Of a stretch of DNA of 64,000 nucleotides, positions 32,365 to 33,641 are shown piece after piece. The translations under genes and the position numbers were made by a program. Where the stretch lies: NCBI RefSeq assembly GCF_024502345.1, contig NZ_JALDNN010000001.1, one strand, 5' to 3'. The notes under the pieces are model-generated. The model had not been told where the DNA came from, ran no database searches, and was given only the letters and a program-made list of their open reading frames with translations. This DNA is from Escherichia coli. GTDB taxonomy: Bacteria > Pseudomonadota > Gammaproteobacteria > Enterobacterales > Enterobacteriaceae. Numbering within the stretch: the first letter of the stretch is position 1; the number at the start of each line of letters is the position of its first letter.

Positions 32365-32379
32365 CATTTATCAGTAATT

Positions 32380-32412
32380 AAAATCACCACCTTAAAATGT
32401 GGTGATTTTTTC
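32380..32412. terminator. Bidirectional intrinsic terminator between rihA and the downstream convergent small ORF
   Basis: aaaatcaccac-cttaaaat-gtggtgatttttt; U-run available on both strands. Confidence 0.75.
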
Positions 32413-32426
32413 CATATTCATTAATA

Positions 32427-32816
32427 TCAATCAACTGTGACTTTTTTCCCAAAATCCTCTTCTGCAATCCAGGTTAAAAACGATGTATCGGCGCCACCTA
32501 ATTTAACAACGCGATCATATAACATCATAACACCAAAATCATGTTCGATATCCCAGGAGCATGAGAACTCGAAACCAATATAAGGCTGGCCATTATTATG
32601 CACCGATAAAATATGTATCGCTAATGGTGATAACAACTTTGAAAAATCCTCTTGAGTTCCAACATCTGGCATATACAACTCTTTTTCTTCCTCGTCATAG
32701 TCATATTGCCCTTGTAAATCAGGATATTTTTTCATAAGTTCCGAAAGAATGGATGCCAAAATTTCAGATTGATGAACAATAATATACTGTAACCCAGTCT
32801 TATGGCATTCGCTCAT
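32427..32816 (-). CDS. Hypothetical acidic protein (129 aa), function unknown
   Basis: Intact ORF in an AT-rich island; by my count 23 acidic versus 9 basic residues; no signal peptide or TM segment; no motif I recognise. Confidence 0.6.
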   Translation of the reverse strand: MSECHKTGLQYIIVHQSEILASILSELMKKYPDLQGQYDYDEEEKELYMPDVGTQEDFSKLLSPLAIHILSVHNNGQPYIGFEFSCSWDIEHDFGVMMLYDRVVKLGGADTSFLTWIAEEDFGKKVTVD

Positions 32817-32855
32817 ACATGAAGTTGGATCATCGCCACCAAGGCTGTAGTATAA

Positions 32856-33377
32856 TTATTCAGCCTCATCACCGAAAAAACTCACCCAGGATGATAAGAC
32901 TATTGGTTCACAGACTCGGTCATCCTCATACTCTGGTTCCGACAATATTTTAGGTTCATCAAGATGACGGTTAAAAAACTCCATACATGCACGGTTACGG
33001 GTAAAGATATATTCTTTATTTTCATCATAACTACGTTGAAAATAGTTAAGCGCATCATCCTCTGCTCCACACGCATAAAGGCACTCACCGCGATAGTAAT
33101 TAACAATATAGTATTCATTTATTTTTCTGTTGACATGGTTATCACCTATAGTTAGCCAACGCTTAACATTTTCAATGTCTTTTAACTTAATATATTCATT
33201 CACCATCCTGCCAATAATGATATTGGCATCATGTATTTTATATTTTTCCTCATCCATGATGCTCCACTGACATTCAATAAATTCAATAATATCCGTTGAT
33301 GTAATATTGCTATTTTTGAGCATCGAGCGGTCCAGAAAACTATAAATCTCTGCTACTTTCTCTAACGCATTTGACAT
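32856..33377 (-). CDS. Hypothetical acidic protein (173 aa), function unknown
   Basis: Intact ORF with aagaggga RBS before ATG; by my count ~34 acidic versus ~20 basic residues; five Cys; no motif I recognise; 39-bp gap to the downstream ORF suggests an operon. Confidence 0.6.
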   Translation of the reverse strand: MSNALEKVAEIYSFLDRSMLKNSNITSTDIIEFIECQWSIMDEEKYKIHDANIIIGRMVNEYIKLKDIENVKRWLTIGDNHVNRKINEYYIVNYYRGECLYACGAEDDALNYFQRSYDENKEYIFTRNRACMEFFNRHLDEPKILSEPEYEDDRVCEPIVLSSWVSFFGDEAE

Positions 33378-33641
33378 AACATCCCTCTTAAATCAATCTA
33401 AAACTAATGCTAAATATTTAAAATATTGATGATTCGGTAGAATGCATATTAAAAGGAGGAAGAGCGCCTGGCTCTCCCTCACGTGCTGTTAAAAAAGTTG
33501 AACTAAAAATGATAGATAGTAACAACGCTACGCTGACAGCCACTCTTCCCATGTCGACATTCCTGAATGTATTCCCTTTTTCTTCATTCCAACAGAAATG
33601 GTATTCGACATAAATCGCTAACAGCGTGCGAAATCATACTA

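Follow-up and report, generated by a model that had tools for sequence, protein, structure and literature searches.

A 173-codon acidic open reading frame in the rihA–ybeL spacer of Escherichia coli is the 5′ part of a nonsense-interrupted gene for a TPR-like and DUF6985 protein

The question raised by this locus is whether a short, acidic open reading frame in AT-rich DNA encodes a small protein in its own right or is a piece of something larger. The frame (ORF173) lies in a stretch of 64 000 nucleotides of Escherichia coli DNA (contig NZ_JALDNN010000001.1), the whole of which was analysed and is referred to here as the window. The original prediction described ORF173 as an acidic protein without a recognisable motif and drew an analogy with small acidic cytoplasmic proteins of AT-rich islands, which are often immunity proteins, antitoxins or DNA mimics. 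The gene order in the window is lnt-gltIJKL-rihA, the island, and then ybeL-leuS-lptE-holA-nadD, and its leuS shares 99.8% identity with E. coli genomes, as expected for a chromosome of E. coli type. The AT-rich character of the island is borne out by its composition (36% GC versus 51% for the window). The features of the spacer that surround ORF173 are as follows.

32365..33641: AT-rich island that fills the entire rihA–ybeL spacer, 1277 bp
32380..32409: bidirectional terminator hairpin common to rihA (plus strand) and the disrupted gene (minus strand)
32856..33377, minus strand: ORF173, ATG start, 173 residues, 5′ fragment of the disrupted gene
33382..33389, minus strand: Shine–Dalgarno-like sequence AAGAGGGA, belonging to the ancestral gene and identified by direct reading
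33456..33480, minus strand: intrinsic-terminator hairpin downstream of ybeL (-17.6 kcal/mol, z -2.9)

The bidirectional hairpin has folding energies of -13.4 and -14.5 kcal/mol (z of -5.0 and -3.4) and is followed by U-runs on both strands. The apparent ybeL terminator is located ~80 nt upstream of ORF173; it sits within the island, about 160 nt beyond the ybeL stop codon, and in E. coli strains that do not carry the island ybeL is followed by just a 36-bp hairpin spacer, which separates it from rihA. A simple scan found no sigma-70 consensus promoter between the ybeL terminator and the ORF173 start codon, which in AT-rich DNA argues neither for nor against expression. No RNA family scored above its Rfam gathering threshold in the island.

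Taken by itself, ORF173 has most of the properties that had been ascribed to it. The frame and its ATG start are as predicted, and the product carries 34 acidic residues (13 Asp and 21 Glu) against 20 basic residues (10 Lys and 10 Arg), with a computed pI of 4.66. There are indeed five cysteines (at positions 36, 99, 103, 131 and 156), and the expected absence of a transmembrane helix or a signal-peptide-like segment is confirmed by Kyte–Doolittle analysis, in which the highest 19-residue mean is 0.61. The frame also has its own ribosome-binding site, AAGAGGGA, with a GAGGG core 5 nt from the ATG, and this sequence is invariant among the aligned E. coli alleles. The probability that a 173-codon frame would be open by chance at the composition of the island is ~3.6e-6. 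This low value, together with the existence of the homologues described below, indicates that ORF173 is real coding sequence. A conserved metal site formed by the five cysteines was considered and ruled out: the positions and numbers of cysteines vary across the family, with the full-length relatives containing between two and nine, and those of ORF173 are not conserved. The full-length relatives are all acidic (pI 4.4–5.2).

Profile and sequence searches with ORF173 gave no significant match in Pfam, NCBIfam, PADLOC, PHROGs or the PDB sequences. PADLOC returned no match at all and PHROGs a best match of only E = 0.047, which places ORF173 with neither the anti-phage defence proteins nor the phage proteins that these collections represent. 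The statement that the protein has no recognisable motif holds for significant matches in Pfam and NCBIfam, but it overlooks a weak TPR motif and a modelled fold that is TPR-like. The motif is a sub-threshold TPR_2 match at about residues 90–123 (E = 0.015, 15.8 bits), which falls short of the Pfam cut-off of 27 and does not by sequence assign ORF173 to the TPR family.

The claim that ORF173 is a small protein standing alone did not survive inspection of the DNA downstream of it. The frame closes at an in-frame premature TAA inside a frame of 316 codons, the parts of which are listed here.

32427..33377, minus strand: whole disrupted gene, a 316-codon frame with one internal stop (single-frame translation and colinearity with homologues)
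32856..32858, minus strand: premature stop TAA at codon 174 (allele comparison)
32817..32855, minus strand: 13 sense codons in frame, LYYSLGGDDPTSC, that separate the stop from the following ATG and are homologous to coding DNA in intact relatives
32427..32816, minus strand: ORF129, the 3′ fragment, 129 residues (Pfam PF22481)
Within ORF173: TPR-like domain (residues 1–136), acidic linker (residues 137–156), first strand and helix of DUF6985 (residues 157–173)

ORF173 and ORF129 are in one frame, and between them there is just the single TAA and the 13 sense codons, so that translation across the break is continuous (...FFGDEAE*LYYSLGGDDPTSCMSECHK...). The intervening codons align with ELYYEIVKSNGD... 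of the homologue P0002 and with ELYYDLGGDDPKS of the homologue P0037. ORF129 matches PF22481, the DUF6985 profile, with E = 5e-23 and 82.7 bits (the Pfam cut-off is 24.5), although it covers just positions 46–146 of the 148-position profile and is missing about 30% of the domain; the 173-residue product on its own gives no PF22481 match and does not contain a DUF6985 domain. When the stop is read as Gln, the match spans residues 165–298 with 84.7 bits, above the gathering score, and the gene as a whole belongs to the DUF6985 family. Because this read-through match crosses codon 174, the stop must lie inside the DUF6985 domain. The acidic C-terminal tail that had been remarked on does end in ...FFGDEAE, but it consists of the interdomain linker and the first strand and helix of the broken domain. 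No obvious Shine–Dalgarno sequence was seen upstream of the ORF129 ATG when the sequence was read directly. Recoding of the stop was also considered. Selenocysteine is encoded by UGA and pyrrolysine by UAG; the codon here is TAA, which is neither, and recoding was rejected on this basis. ORF173 is the 5′ part of a nonsense-interrupted gene for a TPR-like and DUF6985 protein, and the lesion splits the DUF6985 domain. We consider it probable that ORF173 represents the N-terminal fragment of a two-domain gene that has been pseudogenised or is, at best, crippled.

The wider family provides the reference against which this arrangement can be judged. When 1.84 billion representatives were searched exhaustively with HMMER, 31 relatives were found (a word-indexed protein search with ORF173 gave just one fragment, and the family was seen via the exhaustive search). 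The relatives that have both domains are all single proteins of 300–325 residues; ORF173 aligns with the first ~170 residues of these proteins, the C-terminal half of which is DUF6985. An uninterrupted frame of ~300–325 residues with both domains is not found in the window allele, which has TAA at codon 174. A genome scan, based on a narrower alignment, gave 55 loci in Flavobacterium, Chryseobacterium, Myroides and Campylobacter, with matches that run from residue 1 to ~300 and for the most part lie in a single ORF. When tested, the fused single-ORF form proved to be the norm among the relatives and the two-ORF arrangement did not. Full-length homologues in the same four genera are 36–49% identical, and homologues are also present on oral-metagenome contigs (P0025). 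The closest relative outside Escherichia, P0037, is 60% identical and is encoded on an enterobacterial contig between ybeL and a YbeT-like Sel1/DUF1266/DjlB_C/HSP70(HscC) block, which is followed by rihA. A literature search found no paper that mentions DUF6985.

The N-terminal domain has a distribution of its own. Homologues reach 21.7 bits against the TPR_14 model (cut-off 23.5), and neither Pfam nor NCBIfam has a model for the domain (window positions 32970–33377, residues 1–136). Three architectures were seen: the domain by itself, the domain joined to DUF6985, and the domain together with additional TPRs and a SUKH domain (P0018). Proteins that consist of the N-domain only, of 131–140 residues, occur naturally (P0015, P0023, P0026 and P0028), and one such homologue sits in an array of small genes without a DUF6985 partner. 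P0023 was examined as a natural split system and rejected, as the next gene does not encode DUF6985 (hhalign probability 0.15; no Pfam match). The TPR-like N-domain is a candidate for the definition of a new domain family.

Intact alleles of the gene exist within the genus. P0032, a protein of 316 residues, is 95% identical to the read-through window protein over 100% of its length in the profile search. Its 90% cluster has 137 members, which include the E. fergusonii proteins WP_253168904.1 (316 residues) and WP_236713842.1 (330 residues), both annotated as 'DUF6985 domain-containing protein', and many E. coli 'hypothetical protein' fragments of 173, 155, 116, 87 and 81 residues. The two E. 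fergusonii proteins are orthologous to the window gene: they have the same TPR-like and DUF6985 architecture and the same locus between ybeL and rihA (the site of the 330-residue allele is identical), and, with the stop read as a sense codon, the amino-acid identity across the 316 codons is about 95%. Unlike these alleles, the window allele has TAA at codon 174, and ORF173 retains just the first ~17 residues of DUF6985. The intact alleles have CAG at codon 174, one E. coli allele type has CAA, and the window has TAA.

The island is carried by 12 of 5426 complete E. coli genomes. Seven of the 12 have an allele with both K47* and Q174*, and the other five combine K47* with two -1 frameshifts; the gene was broken in all five of the island-bearing complete genomes that were inspected, and the 46-residue N-terminal fragment annotated in four inspected genomes shows the K47* allele. 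An additional allele, from a draft E. coli assembly, has a +1 frameshift at codon 112. Conservation as coding sequence across homologous loci, the absence of which had been named as refuting the original prediction, is accordingly mixed: every E. coli allele examined is disrupted (by K47*, Q174* or frameshifts), whereas the gene is intact in E. fergusonii and in other phyla. The 173-residue product has already been deposited as 'hypothetical protein [Escherichia coli]' (P0060 and P0061), and the split allele that encodes ORF173 and ORF129 is common (P0060 occurs in 146 index blocks and P0061 in 43). Both frames are open in all ten of the split-allele copies that were compared. These copies are nearly invariant, with seven polymorphisms among them (four nonsynonymous and three synonymous), which are too few for a selection test; the near-invariance suggests a young, largely clonal event.

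Two further features of the Escherichia alleles were observed. The decayed E. coli alleles are mosaic: in the 3′ part of the gene the window allele agrees with the L001 type, in the 5′ part it is the L001 and L002 types that agree, and K47*, Q174* and the frameshifts occur in different combinations in the window, L001, L002 and L014 alleles. This distribution points to intragenic recombination between pseudogene alleles. In addition, the DUF6985 motif SW[DE]xEHGLGV contains a Gly, at codon 280 (~32538–32540), that is replaced by Asp in the window (EHDFGV) and by Tyr in E. fergusonii, where the allele is intact (EHYFGV). As this Gly is otherwise invariant, the Escherichia clade had already diverged from the rest of the family at a site that is strictly conserved.

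The substitution pattern distinguishes the history of the gene from its present state. Comparison of the window allele with the intact allele gave a dN/dS of 0.16 for the N-terminal part (six nonsynonymous and eight synonymous changes, p = 0.0015 against neutrality) and 0.25 for the C-terminal part (11 and 10, p = 0.004). The low values in both parts indicate that purifying selection once acted on the entire gene, during most of the divergence. Between decayed alleles of E. coli, dN/dS is 0.76 (ten nonsynonymous and three synonymous changes), which is indistinguishable from neutral. The dS of the gene (0.09–0.13) is similar to that of the flanking rihA (0.13) and below that of ybeL (0.27), which fits long residence at this site and not a recent import.

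The structure of the read-through protein was predicted with AlphaFold2 (mean pLDDT of 92.2, pTM of 0.79). In the model, residues 1–136 form an all-helical, three-repeat TPR-like domain, residues 137–156 form the acidic linker, which is predicted with lower confidence, and residues 157–300 form an α/β domain composed of a β-α-β unit, a long helical hairpin and a four-stranded antiparallel sheet, after which there is a terminal helix. The helix pairs of the N-domain stack antiparallel and superpose on solved TPR domains, as expected for a TPR fold; no solved structural relative was found for the DUF6985 α/β domain. The three-repeat modules that were compared are CTPR3, the Hop/STI-1 TPR domains, IpgC, PcrH and the PlcR/Rap-type TPRs. 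IpgC and PcrH are class II chaperones of type III secretion systems. Sequence identity between the N-domain and the solved modules is only 6–14%, and the Pfam TPR score lies below the cut-off.

The sequence comparisons and the model together give the history of the gene. The ancestral gene encoded an acidic cytoplasmic protein of ~316 residues, with the TPR-like domain at residues 1–136, a disordered acidic linker and DUF6985 at residues ~157–300. It is an old resident of the ybeL–rihA spacer in Escherichia that is still intact in E. fergusonii. In the window lineage, the change CAG>CAA>TAA at codon 174 ends translation within DUF6985. The product, if made, would consist of the TPR-like module with a dangling acidic linker; it could be translated from the ancestral Shine–Dalgarno sequence, and ORF129 would probably be translated only through fortuitous re-initiation. 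As ORF173 provides just the TPR-like module and ORF129 is incomplete, the locus is most likely non-functional and decaying, and an ordinary pseudogene of recent origin is the likeliest reading of its sequence. Public databases already list the intact gene and its fragments under hypothetical or DUF6985 entries, and ORF173, far from being a new small acidic protein, is an artefact that pseudogenisation has produced at the level of annotation. For the window itself the finding matters little, being an ordinary nonsense-truncated allele of a catalogued gene; its value is for annotation, where a single entry flagged as a pseudogene should replace ORF173 and ORF129.

The alternative that survives best is that ORF173 is a functional, stand-alone TPR-like binder that sequesters a partner or toxin, with ORF129 either dispensable or acting as a split partner. 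The natural homologues that consist of the N-domain only suggest that such a fragment could fold and act alone, the Shine–Dalgarno sequence of ORF173 is conserved, and in the comparison with the intact allele dN/dS is lower for the N-terminal part. The last of these mainly reflects the period during which the gene was intact, and within E. coli the ratio is about 0.76. K47* and the codon-112 frameshift destroy the N-domain in other E. coli alleles, and the stop leaves a piece of DUF6985 dangling from the fragment. The split allele is widespread with both frames still open, so loss of function is probable and not certain, but its low diversity fits a young clonal event. We regard a functional stand-alone ORF173 as unlikely. 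Less likely again is the combined proposal that the TPR-like and DUF6985 proteins are an undescribed orphan immunity or adaptor family of which the 173-residue fragment is a still functional member, possibly together with ORF129.

The preferred reading of the window copy as a decaying allele leaves the role of the intact family to be considered. The intact proteins most likely act through protein–protein binding, in which the TPR-like groove may serve as an adaptor and DUF6985 as a binding or effector module. The immunity analogy was examined through the neighbourhoods and fusions of the relatives. A survey for adjacent toxin genes (Rhs, CDI or T6SS effectors), which had been suggested for other strains, found no toxin-domain neighbour in the window, at the Escherichia loci, at 28 other loci or at L004–L010 and L076–L079. 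Copies in Escherichia, Campylobacter, Myroides and the oral-metagenome contigs stand singly amid housekeeping genes. The Flavobacterium and Chryseobacterium copies lie in long same-strand arrays of small genes; as raw co-occurrences, Imm19 is found in five Flavobacterium loci, and SMI1_KNR4/SUKH genes also occur in such arrays, the remaining neighbours being miscellaneous. In P0018, a Bacteroidota-type protein, the N-domain and its extra TPRs are joined to a SUKH/SMI1_KNR4 domain in place of DUF6985, and its gene adjoins Imm44/DUF1963 and Imm17 genes. Imm44, Imm17 and SUKH are the immunity-type entries at L078/L079.

Heterogeneous polyimmunity loci and polyimmunity proteins have been described previously (Zhang et al., 2012; PMC3482391). 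The same-strand Bacteroidota arrays with Imm19, Imm17, Imm44/DUF1963 and SUKH, and the SUKH fusion, appear to match these polyimmunity loci, which lends the immunity analogy modest, purely associative support. Like the immunity proteins of polymorphic toxins, the family members are small to medium in size, acidic and cytoplasmic, and copies elsewhere are sporadic, strain-variable singletons. Unlike them, many copies are stably embedded among housekeeping genes, and no sequence or fold similarity to the Imm or SUKH families was found. The analogy is therefore upheld in part, by the fusion and the Imm and SUKH neighbours in the relatives, and weakened by the lack of an adjacent toxin gene and by the fact that the window protein is a fragment. 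Provided that the protein is intact, an orphan immunity-type role against interbacterial toxins is the best-supported guess, which we put forward tentatively as a possibility that falls short of an even chance. If DUF6985 proteins are immunity proteins, the locus in the window would be an orphan immunity gene in the course of being lost. A separate observation concerns the oral-metagenome contigs, some of which (L008/L009 against L007/L010) have a SMI1_KNR4 (SUKH) gene inserted in the mla (MlaFEDCB-type) operon at a distance of three genes from the DUF6985 homologue. Other contigs, identical in all else, lack this gene, which looks like a strain-variable orphan insertion of immunity type.

A link between the intact family and chaperones was also weighed, in which the protein would be a co-chaperone-like adaptor tied to the HscC/DjlB/DjlC Hsp70 island and the window copy a remnant of that island. 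P0037 lies directly beside the YbeT-like Sel1, DUF1266, DjlB_C and HSP70(HscC) genes, and the structural neighbours of the N-domain include TPR modules of Hsp70/Hsp90 co-chaperones (Cns1, STI-1/Hop and FKBP). Such structural matches are generic to any three-repeat TPR domain, however, and neither HscC nor J-protein genes are linked to the homologues from Flavobacteriia, Campylobacter and the oral-metagenome contigs. In E. fergusonii and in the window the gene occurs with no chaperone block beside it, and a literature search found nothing that links the gene to the hscC/djlB/djlC/ybeQRTU island or that identifies this island as a defence system. A chaperone-linked role is very unlikely on this evidence. 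A role for ORF173 in DNA mimicry, in anti-defence or as an antitoxin has the strong acidity of the protein in its favour, a property shared by the full-length relatives, but is scarcely credible and finds nothing in the analysis to support it, given that ORF173 is a fragment and not a small protein, that there is no adjacent toxin gene, phage or mobile-element context or PHROG or PADLOC match, that the predicted fold is a TPR-like solenoid with the charge mostly in the disordered linker, and that the gene has kept a single, stable chromosomal site in both E. coli and E. fergusonii.

The reading of the window copy as a young pseudogene in an old location is accompanied by several observations on the spacer itself. 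The rihA–ybeL spacer is a multi-state hotspot, which may be empty apart from the 36-bp hairpin, may hold the 1.3-kb AT-rich island or may hold the ybeQ-hscC island, as in K-12. With its mosaic allele decay, the spacer is a neat illustration, on a small scale, of how E. coli loses genes. In the E. coli assembly GCA_002484775.1 (L085) the ybeL gene is split into two called ORFs, of 50 and 97 residues, which reflects either a lesion or a sequencing error. The enterobacterial contig L076 has the 60%-identical homologue and the YbeT/DUF1266/DjlB/HscC block together. Directly upstream of P0037 on this contig, positions 449–1483 encode a protein of 319–344 residues that has a signal-peptide-like N-terminus and no Pfam match; its gene is absent from the window and from E. 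fergusonii, and it is separated from P0037 by a gap of 14 nt, which may indicate an operon.
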